Virus record (IMG/VR): IMGVR_UViG_3300035181_002074
Span: 96,613-160,612 of that record
Direction: 5' to 3' (one strand)
From: a virus
Length of the DNA: 64,000 bases
Below, one piece after another: positions 1,608 to 41,639 of the stretch (position 1 is its first letter; each line of letters begins with the position of its first letter). The position numbers and the translations under genes were made by a program. The notes below the pieces were generated by a model, which ran no database searches, had not been told where the DNA came from, and worked only from the letters and a program-made list of their open reading frames with translations.

Positions 1608-3587
1608 ATGAAAATATACGGAATAGGCGCCAGTCAAGCCATTGATTCTTCAGGGGAAATCTTAATGATCGACGGTGTCGATCTATCCGATGTTCATGCT
1701 GGAAAAGCCTTCTTCAATTGGGAGCACAGTAACGATGGCGCCGATACCTGCGTCGGAAGCCTGACTTTTGCCAAAAAAATCTATTCTGAAAAAGACTGTG
1801 AAAATCCAAAACAATTAGAATGCTGGAATGAAACCCTTTTACCAATGATTTACATTGAAGGGGTTCTCTTTGATAAAGAAGGACATGTTGGGGCAATTTG
1901 CTTGGCCGCTATGTTTCGTTCATTTGTAGCCAGAAATCAAAAAATTGAAATCGGTTCTTCCATTGAAGGTTCTACCATGGAACGTGGAAAAGGCGAAGAG
2001 CACCATGTTCTTAAAAGAACTGTAGCCCGCCGTTGGGCAATTACCCTCAGACCGTGTAACAAGCAATGTTTCCTTAAGGTATTGGCAGACGATACTGCTG
2101 ATGTAATGAAATCGGAAATCGACTGGGATTCTATCAGTCATGATCGTGCCCCAAAACATGGATTCATCGAAATCGACGACCCAATCGAAGATATTTACCA
2201 CACTATTAATGAATTAAATAAAACCCTAACAGCTGGATCGTCTAATGTTGCACCAAGTCAAATGGTTGGCGGATCTGCACTTACCCGTGAAAATCTAGTA
2301 CCTAAAATGCAAAACGTTGGGATGCAAACTAGACTGAAAGCATCATTCAAGCGTTGGAATAAAAAGAAACCACTTAAGGAGCACCTTAAATCTGAGCTTG
2401 AAGATGTATCAGAGGAGTATATAGATAACTTCGCTAAACTCGCTGATGAACTCCATATTAAGAAATCTGAAGAATCAATGCATACTTGGCAACAAGTTTG
2501 GAATAATATGAAAGATTTCCATACTGGTTCAGTTAATGAAAAAGATGCACCCCATATGCACAAAGATGCGCAAAAATATGAGCATTATAAACTTAGAAAA
2601 ATCCCACTATCAAGTTTACATCATGGATCTGATACGCCCGATAAACCATTAGATCGCGAAGATGAAGCGCATGCACATCATTACGCTAAATTAGATACCC
2701 AAGCGCCACCAATCACTCTGCACCCAAAAGAAACTGGTTACCATATCGTAGATGGTCGTCATCGTGCTAGAGCTGCATACCTGAGAGGCGACAAAGATAT
2801 TCTAGCTTACGTTGGTACTCCTATTCAAGCATTCACTAAATCTGAATCCCCTATTCGTATAGACCAGTCAATTGGTAATGATCGCGCAAATGCAGACCAG
2901 AAAGCTTTAATTGCAGGTATAGTTGTGCCAGCCAATGGCGGACAAAATATTCAAGTCATGAATGATTACGGCCAATCATCCCATATCAAGCCTTCTGCCC
3001 TGACCGAATCAGGTGGAGAAACCGCTAAAAATGCTTCTGCATATTATGCTGCAGCAAAAGATTTTTTCGACTTGGGCGAGCATGTTCCAGTATCAGCCTA
3101 TTTTGCACACCAGACGGCACCACAAGAAGGGGCACCATTATTTCTAGCCACCGAGCATGTATCTGGTAAGCCATCGCTCATGGGTTCATTGTTTGAGGAT
3201 TCTATCGGTAAAGATAAAAATCTTATGCATAAAATTGCATTAATGGATACTATTTTGGGAAATTCACACAGAAACCATGGTAATATTATATTGGGAGATA
3301 CACCAAAGCTGATTGACAACGAACACGCTTTCGAATATAAACAAAAACCAGCGTTTCACATCAATCAATCCGGTGCCGACATTATTTCCGAAGATGTTCG
3401 TAATTGGTTAACTAGTAAGGATGCCAAGAAATTGGCTGGCTTGCTTGCATCACATAGAATCGGTATAGACCGTATTAAGAAAGCTATTTTTGCATTGAAG
3501 ACTGCACAAAAAATGAATCATCATCCGATAGGTACCATTTTAGAGAACGTCCACTTTGTGGAACCTTCTCCAGAGGTAGCACAGTAA
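1608..3587 (+). CDS. Prohead maturation protease fused to a capsid-arm copy, a ParB-like domain and a PI3/4-kinase/HipA-like pseudokinase
   Basis: N-terminal IYGIGAS..DSSGE, NWEH, SIEG, AITLRPCN (HK97/herpes-fold protease motifs). ParB-like PPITL..IVDGRHR..AA. Kinase-like DTILGNSHRNHGN..LIDNEHAF. Confidence 0.85.
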   Translation: MKIYGIGASQAIDSSGEILMIDGVDLSDVHAGKAFFNWEHSNDGADTCVGSLTFAKKIYSEKDCENPKQLECWNETLLPMIYIEGVLFDKEGHVGAICLAAMFRSFVARNQKIEIGSSIEGSTMERGKGEEHHVLKRTVARRWAITLRPCNKQCFLKVLADDTADVMKSEIDWDSISHDRAPKHGFIEIDDPIEDIYHTINELNKTLTAGSSNVAPSQMVGGSALTRENLVPKMQNVGMQTRLKASFKRWNKKKPLKEHLKSELEDVSEEYIDNFAKLADELHIKKSEESMHTWQQVWNNMKDFHTGSVNEKDAPHMHKDAQKYEHYKLRKIPLSSLHHGSDTPDKPLDREDEAHAHHYAKLDTQAPPITLHPKETGYHIVDGRHRARAAYLRGDKDILAYVGTPIQAFTKSESPIRIDQSIGNDRANADQKALIAGIVVPANGGQNIQVMNDYGQSSHIKPSALTESGGETAKNASAYYAAAKDFFDLGEHVPVSAYFAHQTAPQEGAPLFLATEHVSGKPSLMGSLFEDSIGKDKNLMHKIALMDTILGNSHRNHGNIILGDTPKLIDNEHAFEYKQKPAFHINQSGADIISEDVRNWLTSKDAKKLAGLLASHRIGIDRIKKAIFALKTAQKMNHHPIGTILENVHFVEPSPEVAQ

Positions 3588-12938: not shown

Positions 12939-14327
12939 ATGGACTTAATTAAGCAACTAGAATCCCTAGTTAAAACCTTAGAGGCTGGAAGTTACAATTC
13001 AGCACCGGGACAATTAGTACAAGGATCTGCGCTTCAATCTGAAGATCTGTCAGCTGTTATGCATAATGTGTGTATCGCTTCAGATGAGATTAAATTGCAG
13101 AAACTTTTCGGTAAGAAAAAAGCAAAATCTCTTACCATCCAATTCAATCGTCAGTTATCATACGGACGTTTGGGTGGAGCAGCTCAGCGCGAAGGCGCGG
13201 TTGGTAATACCAACGTAGGCGACTACGTTCGTGCTACAGTACCTATGTGCTTCTATTCAGAAGTACGCAGAGTGACTGAAGCAGCTAACTTGATCGAAGC
13301 ATTTGATGGTATCAAAGCAGAAGATCGCGAAGCTGAAAACGCAGCTGAAGTAATTGCTATGAACATTGAGTTCGACCTTTTCAAAGGTAAAGCAGACTTC
13401 TCTAACGCAGGTGTATTTGATGGTCATCCAGCAGCTATGCCTGAATTACCAAACATGCTTGGAGTTGACTCTCAAATTCGTCAATCTGACATGCTTGTAA
13501 CTACTCAAGACCTTATGTTCGCGTCTTACGGATCTAATCAATCTGTAGTTCTTGCTCAGAACGCTGCTCTTGACCAGATCGTAATTGAAGATGCTCGTCT
13601 TCGTGCAAAGTTGAACTTTTCACAAGCTAAGAATCTTTATGTAGATCCTGTAATCATGACTAGCTACAACAAAAAAGTTGCACTTGGTACTGGTACTAAC
13701 AGTATTCAACGTATTCAACTCGCTGGTTCTGCTCAAGACGTTTCTGGAGCTTCTCTCCGTCGTCAATGGACAGCTCACGGTGATGTTAATCTTGAAGAGT
13801 CTCACTTCTTACGCGGTAAGACTTCTCCACTTCGTCCAAACATTGGTGGGCCTTCTGCTCCAGCAATCACTACTCAACCATCTTTCGGTGGTTCTGGTTC
13901 ATTGATTACTGCGGGTACTTATGTTTACCTAGTAACTGCTCAAAGTGAAATCGGCGAAAGCCCTGCTACTGCTACTAACACAGTTTCTCCTACTACTGGC
14001 ACAGTTGTTACTATGACAATTACTGCTCAGTCTGGAGTTAAGTTTTACAGCATCTATCGCGGAACTAATGCTAAGAATGCTAAGTTCATCGGTAACGTTG
14101 CTGCAACTGGTGGAAACGTAGTATTTACTGACCTTGGTAATAAGGCTCCGGGATTCGTCACAGGGTACCTCCTAGACGAGAAGACTTGGGAAATGCATGA
14201 TCTTGCCGCTTACAGTCGTAAGAAACTTGCTCAATCCGATCTTTCTACTCCAGAGGCCCATTATACCTTCACAACTGTGGCAGGATACCAACCTCGTAAA
14301 AATGTAATTATCGATAATTTAATTTAG
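12939..14327 (+). CDS. Major capsid protein (SPO1/Twort-like type, with Ig-like insertion)
   Basis: N-terminal LVK|TLEAG..GSALQSEDL; IEFDLFKG; TYVYLVTA..GES..YSIYRG Ig-like domain; followed by a terminator. Confidence 0.9.
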   Translation: MDLIKQLESLVKTLEAGSYNSAPGQLVQGSALQSEDLSAVMHNVCIASDEIKLQKLFGKKKAKSLTIQFNRQLSYGRLGGAAQREGAVGNTNVGDYVRATVPMCFYSEVRRVTEAANLIEAFDGIKAEDREAENAAEVIAMNIEFDLFKGKADFSNAGVFDGHPAAMPELPNMLGVDSQIRQSDMLVTTQDLMFASYGSNQSVVLAQNAALDQIVIEDARLRAKLNFSQAKNLYVDPVIMTSYNKKVALGTGTNSIQRIQLAGSAQDVSGASLRRQWTAHGDVNLEESHFLRGKTSPLRPNIGGPSAPAITTQPSFGGSGSLITAGTYVYLVTAQSEIGESPATATNTVSPTTGTVVTMTITAQSGVKFYSIYRGTNAKNAKFIGNVAATGGNVVFTDLGNKAPGFVTGYLLDEKTWEMHDLAAYSRKKLAQSDLSTPEAHYTFTTVAGYQPRKNVIIDNLI

Positions 14328-15836: not shown

Positions 15837-15964
15837 TTATATATGAGTGATATAGACAGTCCATTTTGGGATATTTTGTTTGATAATAACCAGTTCTTTT
15901 TTTGCCACGATCCAATTGGTGAAAACGGTAATAGCTATCCGATGCTAGCAGTAGGAGATTGTTA

Positions 15965-19744: not shown

Positions 19745-19751
19745 AAAAGGG

Positions 19752-19780
19752 TTGACTAAAACAATAAACCCTGATAGTAT
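19752..19780 (+). promoter_or_regulatory. sigma70-type promoter
   Basis: TTGACT-N17-TAGTAT. Confidence 0.7.
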
Positions 19781-19816
19781 TAAAGTAACAACAACCCCGA
19801 AAGGAAAACTTGACCG

Positions 19817-20896
19817 ATGAAGATTAGTGAAATTAAAAGAGGATTACCCCACCTGATTGCCGCAAAAGTTCCAGCATTACTTATTGGACACCACGGCTTA
19901 GGTAAAAGTTCTGTAATGAGACAAATTGCAGATGAATCTGGAATGACATTTTTTGATGTACGCCTTGGAACTATGTGCGATCCGGGCGATTTACTTGGAC
20001 TTATGATCGAGCGCCAAGATGCTGAAGGCAACAAATCTTTTGAACACGTGCTACCAGCTTGGTGGCCTAAAGCCGGTGAACGCAAAATGATCTTTATCGA
20101 CGAGATCAATCGTGCTCGCCCAGATATGCTCCAAATGGTATTCCAATTAATCCTTGATCGTCGTATCCATACCCATGTATTGCCAGAAGGCTGTACTGTG
20201 CATGCTGCGATGAATCCAGACAGCAATGATTACAAAACTACCAATATTGACGATGCCGCTTTATTGAGTCGTTTTTGCCAAATTAAGTTTACTCCATCCC
20301 AAGAAGAATTTCTTGAATATGCTCGCAGTAAACCAAAATTTGATTCTACTTTCCTTGGCTTCGTAGCAGAAAATATGCAAATGGTTGACTGCACTGGCCT
20401 TGAATCATTCGAAGTAAAAGCGAAACCAGATCGTCGTGCTATCGTAAGAGCTGAAGAAGTGCTTTCTTCGGGATTACCAGAAGATCTTTGGATTGAGATG
20501 CTTGGCGGAATGCTTGGTTACGAAATGGCTGTAAAATACGTTGAATACGTAAAGTCAAACGAAATCAAACCACTTACTTTTGAACAAGTAGTTGGTGCAT
20601 ACAATAAACACAGCCATGTTGTTGCTGCTATGATGAAAAAAGAACGTCATGATGTAGTGACTGTAACCGTGGACAATGTATTGTCGGAGCTTTTCAAGCG
20701 TAAAGATTTGACTAAGAAAGAATCATTGAATATTAGATCATTCTTGCTTGATATCCCTAAAGATATTACTCAAGGTTTCATCAACAGATTCCTTTCTGAT
20801 TCTCCAAGTCATGCGAATAATCCAGTAAGCATTAACATCAATAAATATGTTCTTGATGACGCTTTCGTGGAAACGTTCTCAGCGAAAGTGAAATAA
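19817..20896 (+). CDS. MoxR-like AAA+ ATPase
   Basis: Walker A GHHGLGKS, Walker B IFIDEINRA, AAMNP, ALLSRF. Confidence 0.92.
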   Translation: MKISEIKRGLPHLIAAKVPALLIGHHGLGKSSVMRQIADESGMTFFDVRLGTMCDPGDLLGLMIERQDAEGNKSFEHVLPAWWPKAGERKMIFIDEINRARPDMLQMVFQLILDRRIHTHVLPEGCTVHAAMNPDSNDYKTTNIDDAALLSRFCQIKFTPSQEEFLEYARSKPKFDSTFLGFVAENMQMVDCTGLESFEVKAKPDRRAIVRAEEVLSSGLPEDLWIEMLGGMLGYEMAVKYVEYVKSNEIKPLTFEQVVGAYNKHSHVVAAMMKKERHDVVTVTVDNVLSELFKRKDLTKKESLNIRSFLLDIPKDITQGFINRFLSDSPSHANNPVSININKYVLDDAFVETFSAKVK

Positions 20897-21843: not shown

Positions 21844-22143
21844 ATGGATAAAACAAGGTATGAATTTACCGTTACCGTTTCCGCAGAAGTACTTAGCGGC
21901 TTCCCTATGCCTATTTACGATGAATCAGGCAAAATCATCGGGGCATTTACCCAGCACTATACAAACTCATTACGCTGCTTTGTAGCAGCAACCGGATGGG
22001 GTGATTCAATTCATCTCGAAGATCAATTCTGGTTTACCCCTACATTAAATGAATCCAATATCGTTGTCTCTGGCCATATTTCCGCCATTGAGCATTCTAA
22101 TCAATCCATCAAAGTAAAAGGTGCAGGGAGAAACTATGAGTAG
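21844..22143 (+). CDS. Hypothetical protein
   Basis: 99-aa ORF with GAGG RBS. Confidence 0.6.
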   Translation: MDKTRYEFTVTVSAEVLSGFPMPIYDESGKIIGAFTQHYTNSLRCFVAATGWGDSIHLEDQFWFTPTLNESNIVVSGHISAIEHSNQSIKVKGAGRNYE

Positions 22144-22768
22144 ACCAAGACAAATGCGGAAACCACCAAATGACTCTGATCAAATCTGGGTAACTCATTT
22201 TGATGATGAAGGTTTAGAAGATTTTTACGAAAAATTCATGGAATTAGAAAATGACCCATCTATTTCAATTATCTCAATAATTGTAAGCAGTTATGGTGGT
22301 GATGTGGCCATAATGAACTCCATGAGAGATTTGATTAAGTCATCCCATAAGCCTGTATCCACCTTGGCACTGGGTAAAGCGATGTCAGCTGGCATTTGCC
22401 TGTTAGCGTCTGGCACAAAGGGATATCGTTTTGCGGCACCTAATTCATCCTTAATGTTTCATGAAGTTAGTACGATGCATCACGGGAAGGCCACTGATCT
22501 GGAAACATCATCACTTAATACGACCCAGATTAATAAATTATTGATTAGAAATTTCGCGCATGATACCGATAATACAGTCAAAGAGATTGAGAATGAAATG
22601 CATGCGCGGGGTAATAGTGATTGGTTTCTGACACCACAAGAAGCTCTTAATTGGGGTATCATCGATCAAATTGCAATTCCACGTGTTGTGACGCAGCATT
22701 CTCCATCTACCTTAGCTATCGTTAAAACTGTCCCAAAGCCACTATCCAAGAAAAAGAGAAAAGCCTAA
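22136..22768 (+). CDS. clpP: ClpP-family serine protease
   Basis: SSYGGDV, AMSAG (Ser), MFHE (His), DWFLTPQEALNWGIIDQI (Asp). Confidence 0.9.
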   Translation: MSRPRQMRKPPNDSDQIWVTHFDDEGLEDFYEKFMELENDPSISIISIIVSSYGGDVAIMNSMRDLIKSSHKPVSTLALGKAMSAGICLLASGTKGYRFAAPNSSLMFHEVSTMHHGKATDLETSSLNTTQINKLLIRNFAHDTDNTVKEIENEMHARGNSDWFLTPQEALNWGIIDQIAIPRVVTQHSPSTLAIVKTVPKPLSKKKRKA

Positions 22769-24112: not shown

Positions 24113-25363
24113 ATGACCCCAAAAGATAATATTACAATTCAAAAAACTATCGCCGACTACTTCAGCACATTGCCTGTAACGAGTCAGACATTAATAGTTC
24201 AGGCGATTAATGATCAAGTATCACCGTTATTGGCTACATATGCCAACCAATTAGGAATGAGCCCAGCAGATTATACTATTAATTTAGCTATTAATCAATC
24301 AATCCAAGAGGCAACCAAATCGTTAGCTAAATCCGAATCACTATATTCTATAGTACTGACAAACAGCCATACCTCTACACAAGATATTCAAAATCTTGTT
24401 GATGAGTTGGTATATAAAAGTTATTTCAATAATCAGGAACTTAATAAAAGCTTAAAGAATGCTGCAATCGGATTAGGAATGGCGGCAATGTTTGCTAATC
24501 CTAGTGCTGCTCAGGGGTTAAAAGTTCAGAGCCCATCAAAAGCGACTTCTTATTTAACTCATTCCGCACCAAAAACTGCAGATATGCGTACAACGTTTGA
24601 ACCAGAGCCGTGGGGCAGTCAACCAGAAGATGCTTTTTTACATAACACCATGCAACTCGAAACAAGCGGCGGCAAGAATACCCAGCATAAAAAAATCACC
24701 TCCGGTCCACAAGCCGGACAGACAGCTATTGGTAGGTGGGCATTATTGCCCAACACTATCCGTGAAATGCATAATCGAAATAAAGGCCACTGGGGGCATC
24801 CAGATTTAGAGCGTCTTGGCAGCATGAATGATACCCAAATGTCTAAATATTTACAATTAAATCCGGGCATTGAATTACATATTGCCCGTACTCTGGCTAA
24901 ATTCGTAAATAAGAAGCAATGCGGCGATAAACTGAAATGTGCATATTCTTGGAAATTTGGCCATAATTTATCACCGAACGATATCGGCGCAGATAAATTA
25001 AATAATAGTTATGTGCAAGACTACCATAAATTACAGCAAGGTAAGTCACCTCGCGGATTGAGACCAGCATCGTTTGGATTTCCGTTACAGCCAGCAAAAA
25101 CACTAACCCCTAAACAACCGTTCCAGATCCTTAAAAGTGAAGCAGCTGATTTTGCTCCACGATTGAAACAATGGATCAAAGCTCGCGAAGACAAAGAGCA
25201 AGATACTATTTCAAATACTATGAAGCAGTATGATGATTTACGTGCAGTATCAGCCGTACCCGATAGTGGTACCAAGCCAGATGATCGATTGAATCTTGAT
25301 TTAGATAATCCCATGGATCGTATTAAACTTGCTATCAGAAAAGTTGTAGGTAAAGACGAATGA
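24113..25363 (+). CDS. Internal virion protein with a lytic transglycosylase/lysozyme-like domain
   Basis: QLETSGG...AIGRWALLPNT...AYSWKFG; flanked by LAK|SE, LNK|S and ILK|SE. Confidence 0.7.
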   Translation: MTPKDNITIQKTIADYFSTLPVTSQTLIVQAINDQVSPLLATYANQLGMSPADYTINLAINQSIQEATKSLAKSESLYSIVLTNSHTSTQDIQNLVDELVYKSYFNNQELNKSLKNAAIGLGMAAMFANPSAAQGLKVQSPSKATSYLTHSAPKTADMRTTFEPEPWGSQPEDAFLHNTMQLETSGGKNTQHKKITSGPQAGQTAIGRWALLPNTIREMHNRNKGHWGHPDLERLGSMNDTQMSKYLQLNPGIELHIARTLAKFVNKKQCGDKLKCAYSWKFGHNLSPNDIGADKLNNSYVQDYHKLQQGKSPRGLRPASFGFPLQPAKTLTPKQPFQILKSEAADFAPRLKQWIKAREDKEQDTISNTMKQYDDLRAVSAVPDSGTKPDDRLNLDLDNPMDRIKLAIRKVVGKDE

Positions 25364-30039: not shown

Positions 30040-30957
30040 ATGCCCAGTCATAAACTCAAAGTATTTGATTTGTTTAGCGGCATTGGTGGGTTTTCCAAAG
30101 GTTTAGAGCAAACCGGTTTATTTGAAACAGTTGGTTTTTGTGAAATTGAGCCATATTGCCAACAAGTCATCAAGAAGCATTGGCCACACGTCAAGATCTT
30201 TGACGATATCAAATCTTTATCTAACAAAACTCCAGAACTTTCAGGTATAGATGTTTTATGCGGTGGATTTCCATGTCAAGATATCTCAATCGCGGGTAAA
30301 GGTAAAGGCATAACCGGTGAAAGATCTGGATTATGGCAAGAATACAAGAGGGTAATTAATGAAGTAAGACCAAAATACGCAATTATTGAAAACGTCAGCG
30401 CACTCCTTGGCAGAGGACTTGAAACAGTCTTACAAGACCTTGCCGAAATCGGGTACGATGCGACTTACACGACCTTTGACAGCCAATTCTTCGGAGTCCC
30501 ACAACGTAGACGTAGAGTGTACATTCTCGCAGTCCGCGATGGAATCTTGCCCGAATCCGATATCTTCGAGCTTGGAAAACGTGATAGTGAACAACTCGGA
30601 CGAGAAATGGCAGCTATCAAAGAAGGCAGCGAGTGGAATTTTACGCAGAGAGATAGAAAGCAATATTCCTTTGCCTATTTTACTCGCCAACGCTCTGATC
30701 AGTATTCGTGCTGCGGAGTAAGCGGCACTTTAGCAAAAAGAGACTATAAAAGTTATACTGATCTGGTAGTGGATAATCATGGAGTACGCAGAGTGACACC
30801 ACAAGAAAGAATGCTTTTACAGGGGCTTCCGGCTGATTGGCTAGATGGGTGCGGATTAACGAATATGCAAATGTTTTTATGTAATGGAATGACCGTTCCT
30901 GTGGTATCATATATAGGGAATCGTTTATATGAATACAATCAAACAGCTCGAATTTAA
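30040..30957 (+). CDS. DNA cytosine-5 methyltransferase
   Basis: DLFSGIGG, GGFPCQD, ENV, PQRRRR, RLQG-like MLLQGLP, CNGMTVP. Confidence 0.95.
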   Translation: MPSHKLKVFDLFSGIGGFSKGLEQTGLFETVGFCEIEPYCQQVIKKHWPHVKIFDDIKSLSNKTPELSGIDVLCGGFPCQDISIAGKGKGITGERSGLWQEYKRVINEVRPKYAIIENVSALLGRGLETVLQDLAEIGYDATYTTFDSQFFGVPQRRRRVYILAVRDGILPESDIFELGKRDSEQLGREMAAIKEGSEWNFTQRDRKQYSFAYFTRQRSDQYSCCGVSGTLAKRDYKSYTDLVVDNHGVRRVTPQERMLLQGLPADWLDGCGLTNMQMFLCNGMTVPVVSYIGNRLYEYNQTARI

Positions 30958-31978
30958 CGGAATTACTGTTGGTGATTTATTCTGTGGTGCTGGCATTGGT
31001 GGATTAGGGGCTAAACTAGCTGGAATCAAAACAGTGTATGCCTTTGATAATAATCGCATTGCGGTAGATACTTTTAATCGGAATGTAGAACCAGTAGCAT
31101 ATCTCGCGGACGCTAATCAGATAGAGGCTTCTCTTCTTCCTTATACTGACATTATTACTGCTGGGTTTCCTTGCAAGCCGTTTTCTGTCGCCGGTAAAGG
31201 TTTAGGAATTAAAGATCAGAAATACGGTAATTTAGGTACCATCGCGGTTAATATCATTTTGAACAAACAGCCCAAGGCTTTCTTATTAGAGAATGTAAAG
31301 GGAATTTTATCTAAATCAAATATGCCATCATTTGAAGCTTTATTGTTACCTCTCACCAAAGACTATAATATTACTTGGCAGTTGATCGATTGCTCAGAGT
31401 ACGGTGTACCGCAAAAAAGAGAAAGAGTTTTTGTTATTGGACTACGCAAAGATCTCGAAAAGCAATTTACTTTTCCTTTGCCAACTCACCCGAATAAGAA
31501 AAACACCGTTTTGGACGCAATAGGTGATTTACCAAAAGATCCTTGCAATTCGGTTCCTAATCACGCAAGAGATTGTGGTTTACGTAACGATGAAAAACCC
31601 TTCGTACATAAAATTCCTGTAGGTGGTAATTGGAAAAATTTACCAGTTGAAGATCAAAAAACCTTCATGAAGAGGGGGTTTTATAGCGGCGGCGGACGAA
31701 CTGGAGCTTTATATAAAGTTGACCCATACAAGCCAGCTAAAACCATTTTAAGTTCGCCAATGGGAAAGGCAACCGCACAGATTCTCCACTGGGAAGGGCA
31801 CCAACCAAGACGATATACTGTGCGCGAATGTTTACGTCTACAATCAGTACCTGATAGTTTTATTTTCGATGAGTCTATATCACTACTGCGCCAGTATGAA
31901 CGATGCAGTGGAATCCCAACATTAGTTTCGTATATTTTAATGAATCAGATATCTCAGATAATCAGGAGTACAGAATGA
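30929..31978 (+). CDS. DNA cytosine-5 methyltransferase homolog with an atypical motif X
   Basis: DLFCGAG, GFPCKPFS, ENV, PQKRER, RECLRLQ; motif X reads QYERCSGIP. Confidence 0.9.
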   Translation: MNTIKQLEFNGITVGDLFCGAGIGGLGAKLAGIKTVYAFDNNRIAVDTFNRNVEPVAYLADANQIEASLLPYTDIITAGFPCKPFSVAGKGLGIKDQKYGNLGTIAVNIILNKQPKAFLLENVKGILSKSNMPSFEALLLPLTKDYNITWQLIDCSEYGVPQKRERVFVIGLRKDLEKQFTFPLPTHPNKKNTVLDAIGDLPKDPCNSVPNHARDCGLRNDEKPFVHKIPVGGNWKNLPVEDQKTFMKRGFYSGGGRTGALYKVDPYKPAKTILSSPMGKATAQILHWEGHQPRRYTVRECLRLQSVPDSFIFDESISLLRQYERCSGIPTLVSYILMNQISQIIRSTE

Positions 31979-32628
31979 GCAGTAAATTTGATTTCGATAA
32001 CGTGGCGGATTTTGACAAACATATTGAAATGTCTATCCCGAATTATAGTTTTTTAGCAGCACAGGTTAAAGAATATATTGAATGTTTTGCTCAGGCTGGT
32101 ACCGAAGTCATTGATCTCGGATGCTCTACTGGTAAATTGTTACAATCCGTACAAAAACTACCAGAGGTAACTTATCGTGGAATCGATAACTCAACTTTGT
32201 GCCCGACCAGTGAAGTTAATTGGGTGAAATTTACTAGGGGCGATGCTCGTCGTTTTACTGATATAACTAACGGCAAAAGATCCTCGGTCATTACCAGCAT
32301 CTTCTTTTTACAGTTTTTATCCAGAATAGATCGTCGCCATCTCATTGCAAAAATTAAAGATAATTTAGTTGTTGGCGGTTGTTTCATATGTTGCGAAAAA
32401 ACTCATTTCGATAACCACCGATTAGAGAATATTACCAATACTATGCAGATGGTAAATAAAACCAAAAATTTTAGCGCAGATGAGATTTTAACTAAGCAAA
32501 AGCAACTATCTCGCTCAATGTGGTTATCTACCGAGTCAGAACTAATGAATGAAATGTCTGAGATCGGACAGCCGTCTATATTCTGGAAATCCTTTGGTTT
32601 TACTGGCATAATCGTCTTTAAAGAGTAA
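31975..32628 (+). CDS. cmoA: CmoA-like (carboxy-SAM synthase family) SAM-binding protein
   Basis: FDFDNVADFDKHIEMSIPNY, DLGCSTG, FFLQFL, GGCFICCEK; AGGAG RBS and ATGA overlap. Confidence 0.7.
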   Translation: MSSKFDFDNVADFDKHIEMSIPNYSFLAAQVKEYIECFAQAGTEVIDLGCSTGKLLQSVQKLPEVTYRGIDNSTLCPTSEVNWVKFTRGDARRFTDITNGKRSSVITSIFFLQFLSRIDRRHLIAKIKDNLVVGGCFICCEKTHFDNHRLENITNTMQMVNKTKNFSADEILTKQKQLSRSMWLSTESELMNEMSEIGQPSIFWKSFGFTGIIVFKE

Positions 32629-32658: not shown

Positions 32659-33696
32659 ATGGCGATTCTAGCGACCGACATTCTAATAAAAACAGCCATG
32701 GAAGGCGCCTTAGCTGATATGCGTCGTAACGAATATCTTCTCGATGACTGCTTTGGCGGTCTAGTGGATGATGTTCTTTCTAAAGCGGAATTTGGTACCA
32801 AGGAATTAAATCAAGCTAAAAACTTCATTATAAACAATAATATACCAGTTTATCTCCCATATCGGGTGGACTCACCCTCTACCCCAGCACTCCTAATTAC
32901 CCGTTCCCAAGCTACGGAAGCCAACGACAGAGCTTCCTTAGCCGATGATGGTGAAGACCAAGCTTATGATCCAGCCAAGGCTGGCCAGCCATTGCACCGT
33001 ATTGTACCCCCATTTACGCCTACATTCTATGATGCTGTTCAGGGTATGGTTACTATGCCAAGCCCCCATACGACTTACCAAGTAGCTGCAGGCATGTTCT
33101 TGATGGCTAAAAATGGAAGATCATATCAAATTACCCAAATCTTGGATGATGTGACGTTTTTAATCGCTGCAAACATTAACGAAGATTTCACCGGTTGCTA
33201 TATTGTTCCAGAAACCAAGACTTGGCTAGCGCACAGGGAAAACCTTTTCTTTAGCGAAGGCTGGACTATCACGGTAATGGCATCAGGTGAGCCAATTTTC
33301 GCTGAGTGGTTGCGCCAATTAGTAATTTACTGTTTAAGCCGCTACAGGGAAGCTTATCTAGAAGCAAGAGGATTCGAAATATCTTCTATGCAAGCAGGTC
33401 CAGTTTATTTAGACCCGTCATTTGAAGGAACCAAAGTATTTGCCGCTAAAATTACCTTAAGCGGCACAGTGCCAGCAACTTGGATTAAGTATATTAGTCC
33501 AGTATTTGCGAAAGTTGAAGGCGGAATTAAGATTTTGGAAATGCCTAAAACTCCTGAATATTATATGGATCAAGTAGCTAAGCAAGGATGGTCATCAGTA
33601 AATGATAACATCGATTTACTTGGTCAAGACGAGTCCGACTCCCAAACTATCGGTTCCGCAGACGATGATTATTTATTAGGAACTACCGATGAATAA
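32659..33696 (+). CDS. Probable tail terminator / tail completion protein
   Basis: Acidic structural-type protein; position between neck and sheath genes. Confidence 0.55.
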   Translation: MAILATDILIKTAMEGALADMRRNEYLLDDCFGGLVDDVLSKAEFGTKELNQAKNFIINNNIPVYLPYRVDSPSTPALLITRSQATEANDRASLADDGEDQAYDPAKAGQPLHRIVPPFTPTFYDAVQGMVTMPSPHTTYQVAAGMFLMAKNGRSYQITQILDDVTFLIAANINEDFTGCYIVPETKTWLAHRENLFFSEGWTITVMASGEPIFAEWLRQLVIYCLSRYREAYLEARGFEISSMQAGPVYLDPSFEGTKVFAAKITLSGTVPATWIKYISPVFAKVEGGIKILEMPKTPEYYMDQVAKQGWSSVNDNIDLLGQDESDSQTIGSADDDYLLGTTDE

Positions 33697-36600
33697 TATT
33701 ACCCCGCCGCCAGCAAAAGCTGGGGACACATCACCAGATGGACGCATGACAGCAATCAACCATAAAGATTTAGGTATAGTCTGGGACGCATCTCCGGCTC
33801 ATAAACAGCAAATGGATTCCAATACGCTTAAAACTGCCAGATCTTGGTTACAGACTCAACCTGTTGAGAATCATCCAGTCTTAAAAGCCTTTATTAATCA
33901 AACGCTAACTAGTCCTAATCGTCATTTACGCTATGGTTCAGATATTCAAAATGGTCCAGAAGTAGTTAGGCAGCGCCATATTCATCAAATGATCACTAAT
34001 CATCCAGATTCCAAGCTGATGGTGCATAATCCAAATTCGTTGAGTTTATACGTTAACAGGCACGGTCGAGATAAAAAAATATCACATTTCCAGTTTAACT
34101 TACAAAATAATGTTGCAAAATCTGAAACGTTGTGTTATAATAATGAGTATGGAACCTACACAGACGAATTCTGTAATCGATTTAAGTACACTATTGGCGA
34201 TGACGGAAAACTTGCCGAAAGCGGAATGGGACGCTATTTGGGCAAGAACGAACATGGGGACGATTATTACGAAAGCAGAGATTATGAATCTGACCCTAGT
34301 CGAATTCAGTCTGTTCTTGAACTCCTACGATACAGCCGCTTGTTTAGAAGCACCGGGCAGAGTAGCGATGCAGGAAGTGATGGATCACTTCAACGTAGTG
34401 AACCATTGTTATTAGCAGACCAGCTAGCTAAGCATTTTTTAGGTAAAGGCTCTTTACAGAGAAGAAATCCTTTTAATCCGAATTCGATTCCAGATACCGA
34501 ACGAAAGGCTGTGGAAGCCTGGACTAGTGGTTTTGCAATATCACCAGATAAAATCCTAGCAGCCCCGAAAGAAGCAATAGATCGTGGTGTGCATAAATTA
34601 CACGGCAGAACATCCGTCCGAAAAAACCCAGCCACCGGTGAGCGTGAATTTTTATTACACAGGGGAATGAGACCTAGCCAGTCTGCAGATTTTCAAAATG
34701 GTGGCGCAATGCGTAATACTTCTTGGACACCATCATATGAAGCCGCCAAAGGTTTTGCATCTGATTATTTACGAGAAGAGCAAGATGATACTGATTGGGT
34801 TAAACAATACCAAACGCAATATGGCAGAGACTTAGATCTATCTAAGCCGCATATACATTCAGCATGGATTCCAGAATCAAAAATTTTACATATTCCAAAT
34901 ACTATTGGTCAAAAAGGACACGGCCATAGCGATGATCCAACTTGGGATAAAGATCAAAAGCCATCAAAAACACTTCGCTATCGCGAACATGAAGTGATCG
35001 TAACGCCCCATCAAATGGCAATTGAAAGTAATCCTGAAAAACATATTAAGTTGCCTCATACTGAAGGCTCATTACATGAGCGAATCAATTCACGTGCAAC
35101 TAACAAATCGGAATACTTTTCTAATAAACTAGCTCCTTTAGCGAAAATGTCTCGCCCCGTTTTGAGATTCCCAAAATTAGGCGTTGACCCGCGTTCCGAA
35201 CAAAATGTACAACAAATTGAAACAGGTAAACAAGCTGAAATGTATGGCCGCAAAATAACTGCGCATGCCATACCGGATACCACTAAGCCCAACGTTGGGT
35301 ATAAGTTAGATAACTGGGATAATTTGGTACCACATGACTTACCACCTACGAAACAAAGCTTACAACCACAACGAAATAAAGAAGCTAAACGCTTGGCGGG
35401 TAAATTTGGTTCAAGAGTTTTAGGGACTAACGTTCAATCTACAACTTCGGATACAACCAGAAAACCAAAATCTTTCCAAGCGGCATTAGGTGGTAAACTA
35501 CGATCTAAGTATGAAAGCTTTGATGATACTCATGCTGACCGTATGCAAGAGCACTTTACAAAAAAACGCGACGCATTAAGACAGCACAGCCAAAATCTGG
35601 ACAATTGGTGGAGTTCAAGACCCACCCGTGCCGCAGTGCATGCAGCTAATCCTGATTCTGCAACACCAGAAATGGATTTGATTAACGCAACTAATGCCCA
35701 TCGTAAAGAAAAACCAAAACGTCCAGTCGTAAGAGCCCCATCGAAGAAACGTATCGCGACAAATAAGCTCACCCCAGATCAACAAGCTTTACGCGGTAAA
35801 ACAGTTGATAGTACTATTGAGCATGAAGCAGCTCACGGAGTATTTGACCAGATTGAGCAAAAGCATGGTAAACAAGCGATGTTCAAAGCTCGCAAGCACA
35901 TCTTAGATGCATTTGATCACGATTCATATAGCACTTTGTCTCGTTTTATTATTAGTCGTAATTATAATCCAAAATCAGAATCCTTCCCAGAAGAAATATT
36001 AACGCATGCTAGAGATATTTTAGTTAATCCGACCAAGCGCACCGATTTCATGAATAAGCTTCCAGCTACTATGACCCCAGAGCAAAAACAAATGGTGGTA
36101 AGTAAAATTAAAAAACAATGGGAAGAAGCTTACCGTCGTAGCCAAAACTTAAAGCCAGAAGATATCGTAAATAAATCTGAAGATCTAAATAAAGCATTAT
36201 CACCCGATGAATTAAAGTCACAAGGATACTCCTTTAAAATATTAAACCCGAATAAAAGCAGATCTAGTTATTTAATGCGAGCTTACCATAATAACAAACC
36301 TGTTGGACATATGATGTATAGTGGTCGAGCATTCAGTGTTCCCGATAATGAAAATATGGCAGATCGTTCCCATAAAAACGGCTACCATGATGTTTCGAAT
36401 TCCAATCTTGGGGAAGCACATCGCGGCAAAGGCATTTATCAACACATGCTGAACCTCGGTTCAGAACATGTCAAAAGTTTAGGTTCTAAAGGTCTAATGT
36501 CTTCTGGCTACCAAAGAAGTTCGTCCGCAACGAGAGCATGGGATAAGACAGCTACCCATTCATCGGTAGTTACACCGAAAGATGTTGGTGTCGTTAGTCC

Positions 36601-37438
36601 AGACGTGATGTCCCCTGAGTGGAACCAAGTTTTTGATCCCAAAAAACGTAAAAACGCCGACTATTTTAAATCTGAACCTCTTATGAAACCGTGGGCATCA
36701 CAAGCTCAAGCTGCATGGGGACATTCAGAAGCCGGTAAAGAAGCATTAGGTGCCGAAGGTGTTAAACATTGGGATGCAGCTACTCACGGGAAACATTTAC
36801 CTAAAAGAGTTAAAAAGGATGAGCCTTTAATGAAACCTAAATCTTTAAAACAAAAATGGTATGACAAATCCCTGAAAGAAAAGAAACAGGTCGTACAGGA
36901 AAAAATGAGACAAGGGCCAGCTTTACCACCATTGAAAGACTCACTTAAGCAAGCAATGGATGTTTTCAAAAAGCCTGCACCAAAAGAAGAAGTTAAAAAA
37001 GAAGAACTAGCTAAGATGCCTGTTGTGTTCAGCGGCACCAAGAAGAAACCTTTTACAACCATCCAAAGAATGCAGAATAAAGAAGGTCAAGGCCCGTATG
37101 TCAGTGGCGGAGATATTCCAGAACTGGAAGAACATGGAGATTCTAATGCATCGTGGGATGTCGCAGAAAGAACGCCGAATCCTATTGACGATGAAGGATT
37201 CACATCGGCAGATCAGAAAAGACTTGGACAGGTACCAACGCCAAAAACCCCTAATGTTAAATTCGGTTTCCATAAACCAGAACATGCCAAAAATTGGTTT
37301 TCACCAGAAGAAACTGAAGCCCTAGCCCAACATGGATTCACATTGCAGCCAGTTAAAGCAGCTAAAGTATGGTCATCAGGTAAACAAGCCTTCTTTGAAG
37401 CATATAAAGGCAAAGCTAATAAGAAACCGAAAATCTAG
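33689..37438 (+). CDS. Polyvalent polyprotein: ADP-ribosyltransferase + HExxH zincin-like + GNAT + further modules
   Basis: LHRG/TSWT/EHEV (R-S-E ART); IEHEAAH; HRGKGIY..SSSATRAW (GNAT); modules delimited by K|SE motifs. Confidence 0.8.
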   Translation: MNNITPPPAKAGDTSPDGRMTAINHKDLGIVWDASPAHKQQMDSNTLKTARSWLQTQPVENHPVLKAFINQTLTSPNRHLRYGSDIQNGPEVVRQRHIHQMITNHPDSKLMVHNPNSLSLYVNRHGRDKKISHFQFNLQNNVAKSETLCYNNEYGTYTDEFCNRFKYTIGDDGKLAESGMGRYLGKNEHGDDYYESRDYESDPSRIQSVLELLRYSRLFRSTGQSSDAGSDGSLQRSEPLLLADQLAKHFLGKGSLQRRNPFNPNSIPDTERKAVEAWTSGFAISPDKILAAPKEAIDRGVHKLHGRTSVRKNPATGEREFLLHRGMRPSQSADFQNGGAMRNTSWTPSYEAAKGFASDYLREEQDDTDWVKQYQTQYGRDLDLSKPHIHSAWIPESKILHIPNTIGQKGHGHSDDPTWDKDQKPSKTLRYREHEVIVTPHQMAIESNPEKHIKLPHTEGSLHERINSRATNKSEYFSNKLAPLAKMSRPVLRFPKLGVDPRSEQNVQQIETGKQAEMYGRKITAHAIPDTTKPNVGYKLDNWDNLVPHDLPPTKQSLQPQRNKEAKRLAGKFGSRVLGTNVQSTTSDTTRKPKSFQAALGGKLRSKYESFDDTHADRMQEHFTKKRDALRQHSQNLDNWWSSRPTRAAVHAANPDSATPEMDLINATNAHRKEKPKRPVVRAPSKKRIATNKLTPDQQALRGKTVDSTIEHEAAHGVFDQIEQKHGKQAMFKARKHILDAFDHDSYSTLSRFIISRNYNPKSESFPEEILTHARDILVNPTKRTDFMNKLPATMTPEQKQMVVSKIKKQWEEAYRRSQNLKPEDIVNKSEDLNKALSPDELKSQGYSFKILNPNKSRSSYLMRAYHNNKPVGHMMYSGRAFSVPDNENMADRSHKNGYHDVSNSNLGEAHRGKGIYQHMLNLGSEHVKSLGSKGLMSSGYQRSSSATRAWDKTATHSSVVTPKDVGVVSPDVMSPEWNQVFDPKKRKNADYFKSEPLMKPWASQAQAAWGHSEAGKEALGAEGVKHWDAATHGKHLPKRVKKDEPLMKPKSLKQKWYDKSLKEKKQVVQEKMRQGPALPPLKDSLKQAMDVFKKPAPKEEVKKEELAKMPVVFSGTKKKPFTTIQRMQNKEGQGPYVSGGDIPELEEHGDSNASWDVAERTPNPIDDEGFTSADQKRLGQVPTPKTPNVKFGFHKPEHAKNWFSPEETEALAQHGFTLQPVKAAKVWSSGKQAFFEAYKGKANKKPKI
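34113..34141 (+). promoter_or_regulatory. Intragenic sigma70-type promoter
   Basis: TTGCAA-N17-TATAAT with TG extension, inside the polyprotein gene. Confidence 0.7.
34149..34415 (+). CDS. Nested out-of-frame gene (88 aa)
   Basis: ATG 7 nt after the TATAAT; protein-like amphipathic sequence; +1 frame relative to 33689. Confidence 0.55.
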   Translation: MEPTQTNSVIDLSTLLAMTENLPKAEWDAIWARTNMGTIITKAEIMNLTLVEFSLFLNSYDTAACLEAPGRVAMQEVMDHFNVVNHCY

Positions 37439-38009: not shown

Positions 38010-40385
38010 ATGGGATATTTTCAAAAGTTAGCCAAAAATACGAGATGGTCAGGCAAACATCTGTCAACACCGCAAGCTGGTGATTCTATTCATTTTTCCC
38101 ATCCAGAACATGGTACAGTATCGGTTGTAAAAGATGGTGGCCAGTATCATGTTAAGCATAATGGCGCTCACGCTGGAATTTTAAACCAAAAAGGCATTTT
38201 CAATACCCCAAAAGAAGCCGTACAACATGCCAAGGATTTCATGGCTAAACTAGGCTCTGGTGGACATGGTAATGCTATGCACAATATGCCTAGCGCACAA
38301 TCCATGCCAAGTAAGCCGCATCTACAAGCCCCTAAAAATGATGTTTTCGGTAAAGCTGAAGGATATGCCCCATCGGCAGTAGATAGCCCAAATTTTAAGA
38401 TCGGCGGCACGTTAGCTGATTTCCAAGCCGGTGCCCAAACGAATAGCTTTTCTAGCCCAACTCCGATTCCGCCAGTAATGAAAGACGAAAAACCAAATTA
38501 TACTCGCAATATATGGCATCCAAAACGATTAGATGTTGGCTCCCATATCATGTATCAAGGCAAGAAACATAAAGTAGTTGCCCAGCATCCGAAACCGGAC
38601 AATAGCGCTAATTTTAAAGAACATTATCATACCACACTTTTAGAGGTCAAAGATCCAATTAAAAAAGAAGAATTAGATAAATCTACAGCATTAGAAAGAC
38701 ATTTACAGGCGAAAGGTAAAAGTAAGAATCAAGCCCGTGCTGTCAGATCTCGCGGGAATCCAAAAGGTGTACATTTACCGATTGATAATAAGGGTATATC
38801 AAGCGCGGGAGCATATGCCACTGGACGTATTCGTACCGCTGATGAAAATTTTAATGCAGTTCCTAAATCACAAGATGTTCAGCATGCAAAGTCTTTGCAC
38901 TCCCAAAAACTAAGAGAATTGCGCGCAATGCCAAAGCCAGATCTTGGTAAAGCTCGCCAAGAAGAAGATCTTTCATCAAGGCAAAAAGTTCAAGTACGCC
39001 ATGCACGTTCAGAAAAACCTATTCATCCATTTGGAACTAATGAAAGATTCCATCCAGAAGGACGTAATACCCAAATGGGACAAATTGCCCGTAATAATAA
39101 GTTACGTGCATTCAGAAAACAACCTAAGCCAGACTTAGGTAAAAAAGAATCTAAATTAGCTTTCTTGTTTAAGCACGACTATTTCAATCTGTTTAAAACT
39201 GTATCAAGTCCAGTCAGAACTAAAACTATCATGGATTGCCCAGAGGATCATGACATAGCGGTTAATCAAAAATTTGAATCAATGATTATGGATCGTTTAG
39301 CTCAGTTCCGTAAAGACGAATCAGAAAATCCAGCACAGCCAGATAAGCCAGCCGAAACAATTGCCGGTACGCCTAAAAAACAACAATCTAGATCTTATGA
39401 TTTGTTCACGGATGAAATGGCCAACGCAAAAACTGCTAAGAGCGGTAAACGCGGCGAATTTCTATCTGCTATTTTACATTTAGCTCCAGCGGATCTTGCT
39501 GGCGGTAAAGATGTATGCCCATTCGCTACTGACGGTTGCCGACATGCCTGTTTAAATACGTCTGGTCGCGGTGGTATGCTCGACAGAGAATATGATCTCA
39601 ATGATATTCAATTGGCCCGTATTCGTAAAACAAAAGAATTCCATGATAGTCCGCATGCGTTTTTAAGTCGCATTAGTCGTGATATCGAAAAGCTTAAGCG
39701 TTACGCTAAAGCTGACGGACGTAGACCAGTAGTAAGATTAAATGGAACATCTGATATTAATTGGGCGGCATTGAAATCCCCTAATTTGAAAGGGCAAAAT
39801 ATTTTCGACGCTCATCCAGATGTACAATTCTACGATTATACAAAAAATCCATATATTGTAAAAAATAATAAACACCCAAATTATCACGTAACTTTCAGTT
39901 ATGCTGATGGTGCCCAAAATCAAGGCCACGCAAAAGAATTATTAGCTCAAGGGCACAATGTTGCGGTAGTATTCGGTGGCAAAAAAGATGGCCAAGCTAT
40001 TTTCCCTAAAAAATTTAACGGACATGATGTTGTAAGCGGCGATGAGACAGATTTACGTTTCTTAGACCCAAAAGGCGGCAAAATTGTTGGATTAAGCGCT
40101 AAAGCAGACGCTATGCGTGATACTACCGGTTTCGTACAATGGGGTCATGAAGGTGAACCCGATGCCGTACCTAGACCGAAGACTGAAAAAGATCGTTACG
40201 AAAGAGTTAAGCAGTCTGGCGAAGCTAAGGTTGAAGCCTTCAGACAAAAGAAGTTAGACGCTAGAGCTGCAAAAGTGCCAGTTATTAAATCTGAACAAAC
40301 TCTGCTCGAACAAGCCAAAGAATTATTGAAATCATTACAAGAAAATCCAGCACAGCTGGAAGCATTAACGAAAGTTAAGAAATAG
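38010..40385 (+). CDS. Polyprotein with basic repeat modules and a GP88 (radical-SAM-like) domain
   Basis: CPFATDGCRHAC, RLNGTSD, QFYDYTK, NYHVTFS, GDETDLRFLD. Confidence 0.8.
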   Translation: MGYFQKLAKNTRWSGKHLSTPQAGDSIHFSHPEHGTVSVVKDGGQYHVKHNGAHAGILNQKGIFNTPKEAVQHAKDFMAKLGSGGHGNAMHNMPSAQSMPSKPHLQAPKNDVFGKAEGYAPSAVDSPNFKIGGTLADFQAGAQTNSFSSPTPIPPVMKDEKPNYTRNIWHPKRLDVGSHIMYQGKKHKVVAQHPKPDNSANFKEHYHTTLLEVKDPIKKEELDKSTALERHLQAKGKSKNQARAVRSRGNPKGVHLPIDNKGISSAGAYATGRIRTADENFNAVPKSQDVQHAKSLHSQKLRELRAMPKPDLGKARQEEDLSSRQKVQVRHARSEKPIHPFGTNERFHPEGRNTQMGQIARNNKLRAFRKQPKPDLGKKESKLAFLFKHDYFNLFKTVSSPVRTKTIMDCPEDHDIAVNQKFESMIMDRLAQFRKDESENPAQPDKPAETIAGTPKKQQSRSYDLFTDEMANAKTAKSGKRGEFLSAILHLAPADLAGGKDVCPFATDGCRHACLNTSGRGGMLDREYDLNDIQLARIRKTKEFHDSPHAFLSRISRDIEKLKRYAKADGRRPVVRLNGTSDINWAALKSPNLKGQNIFDAHPDVQFYDYTKNPYIVKNNKHPNYHVTFSYADGAQNQGHAKELLAQGHNVAVVFGGKKDGQAIFPKKFNGHDVVSGDETDLRFLDPKGGKIVGLSAKADAMRDTTGFVQWGHEGEPDAVPRPKTEKDRYERVKQSGEAKVEAFRQKKLDARAAKVPVIKSEQTLLEQAKELLKSLQENPAQLEALTKVKK

Positions 40386-40391
40386 GACATT

Positions 40392-41639
40392 ATGAAAAAG
40401 ACTATAGAGCAAGCTAAAGCATTATTGAAAGCTATCCAAGAAAATCCACAAGGAATGGAAGAGCTGAATAAAGCTTTTAATCCAAATATTAAAGGAGTGC
40501 ATCAATCAGCTTTTATGCATAGCGATAAAAGCGGAACTTCAAGTGTAGGCGCCCATATGGCACCCGGCGGTGTTAGTCCTCAAACGAATGCATATGCAAA
40601 AGTCCAACACCTCAAAATTTTAGCAGAGCAAAAAGCAATGAAGAAACCCATCCTTGGTAAAGAAGAAGACGAAGTTTCTATGCCCAAAAAAGATTTTATC
40701 AAAGAGCATAAAAATCTAGTGCATACTCTTAAGACTCCATCACACAAGGATGACCTCGCAGAAGCTAAAGAGCAAGGTAAAGAATTAAAAGAAGAAATGT
40801 CAAAAGCTAAGCTAGAAGAAGGCGCACCTGCTGATTACAAACAAGATATTCGTGCTGCTAGACAAGCCCCAAGACCAACCGTTAATCCAACCATTCATCA
40901 ACCGTTTGACCAAAACATTGGACGTTCTCAAGCTGGGTCTGCAACTGCGGGTGCCCACAAAGCAGCTATGACTGGCATCGGTGGAGCTGGTACTAAAGAA
41001 GCTTTATTAGCCAAAGCAAAACAATTGCACCAAAAAGTGCTATCTGGAATGCAATCTCAAAAAGCTCCCAATCTTCCAAAGTCTGAATTAGAAAAAGCTA
41101 AAATCGACCAAGGGCTATCTATTCCAGCAAAGAACCAAGCACGTTGGGATCGTGGCGGTGTTCACCAAGATCAATCTAAAGGTGTTCATACAGCCCCATT
41201 CAAGTCAGTTCCGGGTATGTCTGTATCAGGTCATGAAATTTCTCAAACTGGTACCGTGACTCCGATTGCTAAAGAATCTCACATCCATAAGGTTAAAGAG
41301 CTTAAAGCGATGTTAGCTCCTAAGCTCGGTAAAGGTTCGGCTATGCCAGCTCCAGCCCCAGCACCAATGTCGAGCGGGTTCGGCAAGATTCTACCTAAAC
41401 CTAAGCCAAAACCAATGTCTGCCCCTGCCCCTATGATGGCTAAAGAAGAGAAATGTACAACTTGCGGTAAAGCAGGATGTAAATGTACCCCAGCGATCAA
41501 AAAAGACGAAACTTCGGCTGCTAATGGTGAAATCGGAACCAAAAAACCTAAAGAATTCGACCCTTTGAAGGATGCGCCAGAATTAAAAGAAATTAACCCT
41601 GCTGCTTACTTTGCTAAGAAAAAGAATAAAAAGAAGTAA
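40392..41639 (+). CDS. Basic repeat polyprotein (internal head protein candidate)
   Basis: Three KGVH..AK..H..L(G/P)K-type repeats; C-terminal CTTC..CKC. Confidence 0.7.
   Translation: MKKTIEQAKALLKAIQENPQGMEELNKAFNPNIKGVHQSAFMHSDKSGTSSVGAHMAPGGVSPQTNAYAKVQHLKILAEQKAMKKPILGKEEDEVSMPKKDFIKEHKNLVHTLKTPSHKDDLAEAKEQGKELKEEMSKAKLEEGAPADYKQDIRAARQAPRPTVNPTIHQPFDQNIGRSQAGSATAGAHKAAMTGIGGAGTKEALLAKAKQLHQKVLSGMQSQKAPNLPKSELEKAKIDQGLSIPAKNQARWDRGGVHQDQSKGVHTAPFKSVPGMSVSGHEISQTGTVTPIAKESHIHKVKELKAMLAPKLGKGSAMPAPAPAPMSSGFGKILPKPKPKPMSAPAPMMAKEEKCTTCGKAGCKCTPAIKKDETSAANGEIGTKKPKEFDPLKDAPELKEINPAAYFAKKKNKKK

Follow-up and report, generated by a model that had tools for sequence, protein, structure and literature searches.

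A putative effector polyprotein in a Mx1-related myovirus with module borders resembling a capsid maturation site

Results

The polyprotein gene and its linker tags

The DNA analysed here, on referred to as the window, is a stretch of 64,000 nucleotides corresponding to positions 96,613 to 160,612, i.e. the last 64 kb, of the viral record IMGVR_UViG_3300035181_002074, a complete genome of 160,612 bases since the ends of the record overlap. In the late head region of the window, between the neck genes and the tail sheath gene, lies an open reading frame (ORF; named P0001) in which an N-terminal module (M1), an ADP-ribosyltransferase (ART), a basic module with an HExxH motif, a GNAT-like module, two small peptides and a domain of the T4 Y00F family are separated by short tags of the form hydrophobic-x-Lys followed by a small residue (Table 1). 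The same tag is found at the maturation site of the capsid protein, and the ORF is therefore read as probably encoding a late-expressed, head-packaged polyvalent effector precursor. To judge from its genes the phage is a myovirus and kin of Myxococcus phage Mx1, its sole close cultured relative (capsid protein 49%, protease 39%), which has a contractile tail and a genome of 169.6 kb (PMC10720576).

Table 1. The polyprotein ORF, its parts, the gene nested in it and virion genes of the window. Positions are those of the window; a slash marks a predicted cut.
Feature	Position	Strand	Remarks
Polyprotein ORF (P0001)	33689..37438	+	1,249 aa
Module M1	33689..34120	+	aa 1-144
Spacer in polyprotein frame	34121..34447	+	aa 145-253, flanked by VAK/S and LGK/G
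ART module	34448..35107	+	aa 254-473
Linker TNK/SE...LAK/M	35108..35146	+	aa 474-486, paired predicted cut sites
Basic HExxH module	35147..36175	+	aa 487-829
Linker VNK/SEDLNK/A	36176..36193	+	aa 830-835
GNAT-like module	36194..36670	+	aa 836-994
Linker YFK/SEPLMK/P	36671..36688	+	aa 995-1000
43-aa conserved peptide module	36689..36817	+
55-aa basic peptide	36836..37000	+	net +9, between LMK/P and VKK/EE
T4 Y00F-family domain	37016..37438	+	aa 1110-1249, after LAK/M; PF26820, phrog_1106
Nested +1-frame gene	34149..34415	+	88 aa; alternative ATGs 34143, 34110
Sigma70-like promoter candidate	34113..34141	+	TTGCAA-N17-TATAAT, TG extension
Portal end			present in window
Probable prohead protease gene	1608..3587	+	39% to Mx1 ORF annotated as prohead protease
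Probable scaffold gene	12117
Major capsid protein gene	12939..14327	+
Virion-region gene upstream of polyprotein	32659-33696		its stop overlapped by polyprotein ORF
Sheath gene	41947
Tube gene	45120
Probable tape measure gene	60379

A previous interpretation of this DNA, made from the letters and translations alone (the sequence-only reading), had listed the K/SE, K/DE and LxK pairs between the modules together with the motifs LHRG (34655), TSWT (34718), EHEV (34985), HEAAH (35822) and HRGKG; all of the pairs are present, the motif positions are correct and HRGKG was found at 36419. Five copies of the strict motif hydrophobic-x-K-[SD]-E are present in the polyprotein ORF, where shuffled sequences would lead one to expect 0.24. 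Among the proteins of the window no tripeptide is more strongly enriched than KSE (23 vs 5.2, p ~7e-9). A fifth KSE lies within the HExxH module (aa 764), but it does not fit the motif (NPK-SE) and is probably no site. The folded domains of 140–340 aa are free of internal tags.

When the whole genome is considered, ten head-region ORFs (5,222 aa in sum), partly picked after the motif was seen, contain hydrophobic-x-KSE 20 times, and the remaining 40,617 aa contain it once. The portal, the protease and the scaffold carry the tag while it is absent from sheath, tube, fibres and replication genes. At the DNA level KSE is encoded in 60 linkers by 20 different 9-mers, drawing on both Ser codon families, and since the codons vary the signal is read on the protein.

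Module borders and shuffling in relatives

Single modules of the polyprotein are shared with relatives in differing order, which supports the modular build proposed in the sequence-only reading, and the borders of the modules in these homologues coincide with the motifs, the point on which that reading had staked itself. Among the copies whose alignment reaches the module start, hydrophobic-x-Lys stands immediately N-terminal of the module in 162 of 165 cases for ART, 22 of 25 for HExxH, 8 of 9 for GNAT and 8 of 8 for the 43-aa peptide, and in ~80% the residue following the Lys at the module start is G, A, S, M, N or T. M1, which is N-terminal here, is internal or C-terminal in relatives and there stands behind LxK-type tags.

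An all-against-all comparison of 133 relatives gave the same picture. Of the BLAST alignment starts, 109 came to lie no more than 5 aa from the full linker motif, where random placement gave 19.6 and never more than 31, and 300 equally close to [LMI]xK (random 108.5). The relatives not being independent lineages, the border and breakpoint counts overstate the significance. The control motifs were at chance level ([LMI]xR 70 vs 76, [LMI]xE 75 vs 78), and with the ART-derived breakpoints taken out the numbers were 111 vs 49.7. The order of modules is not fixed, as GNAT precedes HExxH in P0002 and P0004 and follows it in P0001 and P0003, and ART can be repeated up to five times in one chain. Other cargo found in the relatives comprises GNAT, NUDIX, kinase-like, VTC, SAM lyase, ParB, mCpol, PBECR5 and ART-PolyVal domains. 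Searches with the whole ORF against PDB sequences gave no significant match, and single-sequence scans of viral contigs no match.

The capsid site and the probable prohead protease

Alignment of the major capsid protein with its homologues SPO1 gp6.1 (E 4e-14) and the capsid protein of PDB entry 5lii (E 4e-5), which we take to be that of phi812, places LVK12/T13 of the phage opposite LNK/A of gp6.1 and VVK24/S25 of 5lii. The latter protein is also deposited in a form of 439 residues (9row) with S25, next after K24, as its first residue, which fits maturation after Lys. The capsid protein of A511 is also cut between Lys and Ser. In sequence the linker tag matches the capsid maturation site of phages of the phi812/SPO1 type.

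The ORF of the probable prohead protease joins protease, ParB-like and kinase-like modules via the same tags. Directly after the protease domain it holds a ~40-aa copy of the N-terminal region of the capsid protein (window 2190–2320) in which the capsid site reads K205/T206, and the protease ORF of Mx1 (L030) contains such a copy likewise. The copied site may be a self-release site or may tether the fragment to the shell.

The genome has 15 copies of the sequence CCTAATATTT, on the + strand only, and those in the window (1564, 21820, 22764, 26988, 32641, 41887, 47625, 49688 and 57664) are mostly situated 5' of structural genes, making it a candidate late promoter. The copy at 32641 precedes the gene immediately upstream of the polyprotein, and because of this and of its position the polyprotein is presumably expressed late.

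Predicted functions of the modules

The assignment of the second module to the R-S-E class of ADP-ribosyltransferases, already made in the sequence-only reading, is well supported by its fold and by its invariant R, S and ExE. The border had been left unmarked in that reading; ART begins after LGK253 (LGK/G), at aa 254. All 96 sequences have the catalytic residues R325, E433 and E435, and 95 of them have S345; each of these residues coincides with a predicted strand or comes immediately ahead of one. In a structure prediction of the module (pLDDT 90.6) all of the 50 neighbours listed by VIA have the ART fold, the best being Vis with a middling Z of 5.7 (root mean square deviation (rmsd) 3.6, 125 aligned). 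A likeness to T4 Alt may be hinted at by one weak row in BFVD (E 0.29), and neither PHROG nor PDB gave a sequence match between the module and T4 Alt. No Pfam model matched the module of the polyprotein, while Pfam DRAT matched 2 of 96 ART members weakly, and the ART profile found nothing significant among PDB sequences. A profile search showed that the family comprises at least 332 clusters at 50% identity; the hits are 112–2,471 aa long and match in as many as five stretches. The ExE motif suggests Arg as the target residue, and the module is predicted to be an Arg-type mono-ADP-ribosyltransferase.

In the HExxH module the residues H712, E713, E769 and D776 are conserved in 30 of 30 sequences and H716 in 29, and the model (pLDDT 92.1) places the motif on a helix with strands before it and E769 on a later helix. 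The module is probably a metallopeptidase of the gluzincin type. The result of the fold search was driven mostly by a helical hairpin. The Certhrax N-terminal domain matched with Z 5.2 (rmsd 5.1, 166 aligned), and there was no zincin among the VIA matches listed; comparison with Atlas gave a DA1-like protein at TM 0.45 by target, and Foldseek gave no match at E<=0.001. Neither Pfam models nor PDB sequences, the latter searched with the profile, returned anything significant for this module.

The third enzyme had been called a GNAT acetyltransferase from its HRGKG motif. In GNAT acetyltransferases motif A has the form [RQ]-x-x-G-x-[GA] and comes behind a beta strand. The motif and its conservation in the family stand, with H911, G913, G915 and Y917 of motif A (H-[RQ]-G-x-G) kept in 10–11 of 11 sequences, while the assignment itself is only probable as the profile matches are weak (7 of 8 PDB rows are acetyltransferases, best E 0.07) and no Pfam model matched. 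A homologue opens the Mx1 ORF annotated as 'kinase', after LQK/A, and the module is likely an acetyltransferase.

Of the small units, the 43-aa peptide is present over its full length in eight other proteins, each time flanked by LMK/ and another Lys tag, and no homologue was found for the 55-aa basic peptide. The last domain belongs to the T4 Y00F family. When their profiles were compared to that of the ART module, nothing supported the idea that Y00F or M1 might be a second ART.

M1 and a gene nested in the +1 frame

The M1 family has at least 31 members sharing an invariant W, R-x-R-H and H and a near-invariant D-P-x-R-H. M1 is probably an enzyme or a toxin, and its invariant residues allow the guess that it is perhaps a nuclease.

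The region after M1, aa 145–253, had been taken for a plain VAK/SE linker but turned out to be dual-coding DNA, carrying a conserved gene in the +1 frame. Among the loci with available DNA, all 11 with an internal M1 have a +1 ORF of 48–88 codons starting not more than ~35 bases from the end of M1, mostly with a ribosome-binding site, compared to a +1 ORF at 11% of random positions. Where M1 is at the end of its ORF a related protein is encoded by the ordinary next gene (3 of 3 loci), so that the partner gene lies directly downstream of M1 in 14 of 14 cases, 11 nested and 3 free-standing. The partner proteins align with each other and form a small family in which the copy of the window is a divergent member. 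In the loci examined the partner gene was missed by the gene callers.

The +1 protein outscores the peptide of the polyprotein frame in 40 of 55 locus pairs. Substitutions follow the +1 frame, variation being lowest at its second codon position. As a protein, the spacer is poorly conserved, yet it is stop-free; the polyprotein frame is without stops in 11 of 11 nested copies (chance by synonymous recoding <=0.005, ten copies), while the free-standing partner genes have 23, 6 and 2 stops in the equivalent frame. Both frames are therefore maintained. When 28 polyprotein ORFs with DNA were scanned with a strict filter for nested genes after other modules, only partners of M1 were returned.

The nested gene is a candidate antidote of M1, to which we would give an even chance. 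In favour of this are its strict one-to-one linkage directly 3' of an Arg/His-rich probable enzyme, its small size, its helical sequence pattern and its fast divergence, all of them usual traits of immunity genes. Only somewhat less probable is that it encodes a chaperone, a cofactor or an early regulatory protein tied to M1, as M1 is without a family match and its toxicity is an assumption. The same could be said from the sigma70-like site which the nested gene of the window has for itself; this site lies within the codons of the first VAK/SE tag, is the best of the + strand regionally (10 of 12) and is absent from most relatives. A predicted complex of M1 and the nested protein scored 0.01, weighing neither way.

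Discussion

Proposed processing of the polyprotein

We propose that the precursor is made late and built into the prohead together with scaffold and portal, where the prohead protease would cut the chain after hydrophobic-x-Lys, the same site as on the capsid protein, the paired sites serving to excise the short acidic linkers. The units set free would be M1, the Arg-type mono-ADP-ribosyltransferase, the HExxH protein, the acetyltransferase, the two small peptides and the Y00F domain, and these would be ejected with the DNA to act on proteins of the host at an early stage of infection. Each unit having its own tags, modules could be freely gained, lost, duplicated and reordered. With M1 last in the ORF the partner is an ordinary next gene; with M1 internal it is retained in +1, where the polyprotein would read through it as a discarded spacer between cut sites, while the partner protein would be a product of its own and may shield the producing cell from M1.

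The single steps are not equally firm. Packaging in the virion, suggested by the gene position and the shared head tag, is very likely; cleavage by the prohead protease, to which the identity and distribution of the motif point, is likely to nearly the same degree, and ejection with modification of the host is probable. Extended to Mx1-like myoviruses in general, the proposal that the capsid-maturation protease frees exchangeable effector cassettes from long precursors in the prohead, the toxic ones bringing out-of-frame antidotes in discarded spacers, is tentative.

Several observations weigh against this proposal. In SPN3US ~80% of the head proteins are uncut and the cuts take off propeptides and separate no domains (PMC10052503). 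In many relatives (e.g. P0003, P0004, P0007, L004, L005 and L016) the first h-x-K-S-E is replaced by L-A-A-S-E, with modules ending K-K-L-A-A-S-E, a form unexplained by Lys-specific cleavage, and the first half of the tag may instead be a binding or spacing signal. The identification of the protease is probable, resting on gene position, on the annotation in Mx1 and on motifs, and the ORF matched no family model. M1 has no match in Pfam, PHROG or PDB, and to the middling Z-scores of the ART model must be added that Foldseek gave no match for it at E<=0.001. The dependence among the relatives has been mentioned above, and neither virion proteomics nor N-terminal data for Mx1 were found in the literature. 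The S-E common to both forms of the tag may act as another signal, independent of the Lys cut.

Alternative explanations

The tags could be capsid-targeting or scaffold-binding signals, or flexible joints, in a chain that is packaged and ejected uncut like the virion RNA polymerase of N4, which is packaged unprocessed (PMC5512222), and the LAASE variants lacking the first Lys would agree with this. We regard it as unlikely, given that the Lys directly before the modules is nearly invariant with a small residue next to it, that the tag equals the capsid site which the shorter form on deposit (9row) lacks, and that a 109-aa off-frame spacer and 43-aa peptides between tags make most sense if excised.

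Release by embedded peptidases, the MPTase domains of polyvalent proteins, was proposed by Iyer et al. 2017 (PMC5512222), and the HExxH module, in which H712, E713, H716 and E769 are conserved, might process the chain itself, in the head or after injection. This is improbable as the module is present in only 20 of 129 ART-bearing chains, Mx1 has the tags without a detectable homologue of it, and the identical tag marks capsid, scaffold and portal.

More improbable still, the chain could be mainly structural inner-core or scaffolding matter degraded in maturation, with the enzyme domains as passengers acting in the producing cell or inert. Scaffold and other low-complexity head proteins bear the same tags, and propeptides of SPN3US leave the head after multiple cuts (PMC10052503), but such a fate is hard to combine with essentially invariant catalytic residues of ART (96 sequences), with folded domains of 140–340 aa that lack internal tags and with a cargo list of conflict enzymes.

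That the linkers are DNA recombination sites driving module shuffling, without a role at the protein level, is scarcely credible even if a short shared sequence could seed recombination and modules do swap at the linkers, since synonymous codons vary freely and there is no fixed DNA word; as the sole explanation it is largely refuted by this variation.

Relation to known systems

The proposed precursor, packaged and cut in the prohead, can be compared to several known systems. In architecture and gene context the polyprotein is one of the polyvalent proteins described by Iyer et al. 2017 (PMC5512222), a kinship also drawn in the sequence-only reading and supported here. It combines in one chain at least two unrelated effector-type domains (ART, HExxH, GNAT-like, Y00F and M1), it lies among virion genes of a portal-terminase phage, and its relatives display a mosaic of the published repertoire (ART-PolyVal, PBECR5, ParB, GNAT, NUDIX and kinase-like). 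Polyvalent proteins, known from phages and conjugative elements, are likewise effector chains among virion genes, with ART, HExxH, GNAT, kinase, ParB, NUDIX and PBECR domains, and have been predicted to be packaged and injected and likened to viral polyproteins (PMC5512222). They differ in that release by embedded peptidases was suggested and no repeated linker described (PMC5512222), whereas here a tag equal to the capsid site and a separate prohead protease are implicated, and in that a partner gene is here nested out of frame. In the open-access literature, subscription journals being mostly uncovered, neither the tag system nor nested partner genes in polyvalent proteins were found to be described.

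The ART fold with R, S and ExE is common to the ART of the polyprotein and to T4 Alt, ModA, ModB, Vis, VIP2/iota and DRAT. T4 Alt is processed by the T4 prohead protease, and gp21 of T4 cuts after Glu. Alt is packaged in the head and injected (PMC5512222), and head-packaged ARTs are expected in myoviruses (PMC9503650); unlike Alt, the ART described here is a separate family, embedded as a repeatable module.

The Herelleviridae (phi812/K, SPO1 and A511) have a homologous capsid protein with the same h-x-K/small site, known there for removal of the capsid propeptide, and the literature searched gave no case of the site separating the enzymes of a multi-enzyme chain. In SPN3US one head protease cuts the capsid, the portal, itself and internal proteins (PMC10052503). 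SPN3US and phiKZ resemble the present system in using one protease and a three-residue motif, but their motif is A-x-E and only terminal propeptides are removed (PMC10052503).

For the pair formed by M1 and its partner, immunity genes of MuF systems follow the toxin gene, and in lambda Rz/Rz1 a complete gene is located inside another in the +1 frame, Rz1 being a lysis lipoprotein. The toxin-immunity pairs of MuF proteins consist, as the M1 pair, of a head-associated effector and a small partner gene 3' of it (PMC5576092), but the partner of M1 alternates between free-standing and nested with the position of the module, unlike the MuF immunity genes.

Mx1 (OR576727.2; PMC10720576) shares with the phage of the window the head gene order, tagged polyproteins and a GNAT module. 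Its tagged multi-module chains are WNM70333 ('NUDIX hydrolase', 1,479 aa) and WNM70334 ('kinase', 619 aa), located at 19405–25711 of L030. Their cargo is different, and the genome note is silent on the tag system (PMC10720576). The content of guanine and cytosine is 55.5% in Mx1 against 40% here, and the host therefore probably differs.

With the tag as a sequence rule, hundreds of unannotated giant phage ORFs could be read as sets of separate injected proteins, and the processing of polyvalent proteins in the manner of viral polyproteins becomes directly testable, the cultured Mx1 having the same system. Three undescribed families (ART, the HExxH module and M1) are candidates for anti-defence or takeover enzymes, and M1 with its partner illustrates how a two-gene module can be inserted in the middle of a polyprotein.

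Other genes in the window

Directly after the protease pair lies an ORF of 2,042 aa (4191–10319) with helical repeats and no KSE tag, the C-terminal part of which resembles, by eye, one module of P0002. Downstream of the capsid gene a pentapeptide-repeat protein is encoded (15959–16408), and between the capsid and neck genes are an HExxH/VWA-like gene together with an AAA ATPase gene (18201–20896, by eye a MoxR-like pair) and a ClpP-like gene (22121–22768). The tagged protein encoded at 24113–25363, by eye lysozyme-like, has a central part that relatives also possess as a module, as does the 'NUDIX' chain of Mx1. The run of head and neck genes is interrupted at 30040–32628 by two cytosine DNA methyltransferase genes and one methyltransferase-like gene, all untagged. 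Downstream of the polyprotein two further tagged chains were found, one with a GP88 domain (38010–40385, PF17338) and one made up of repeated short basic units (40392–41639), and the gene order of the region 38010–41639 is the same in L064.

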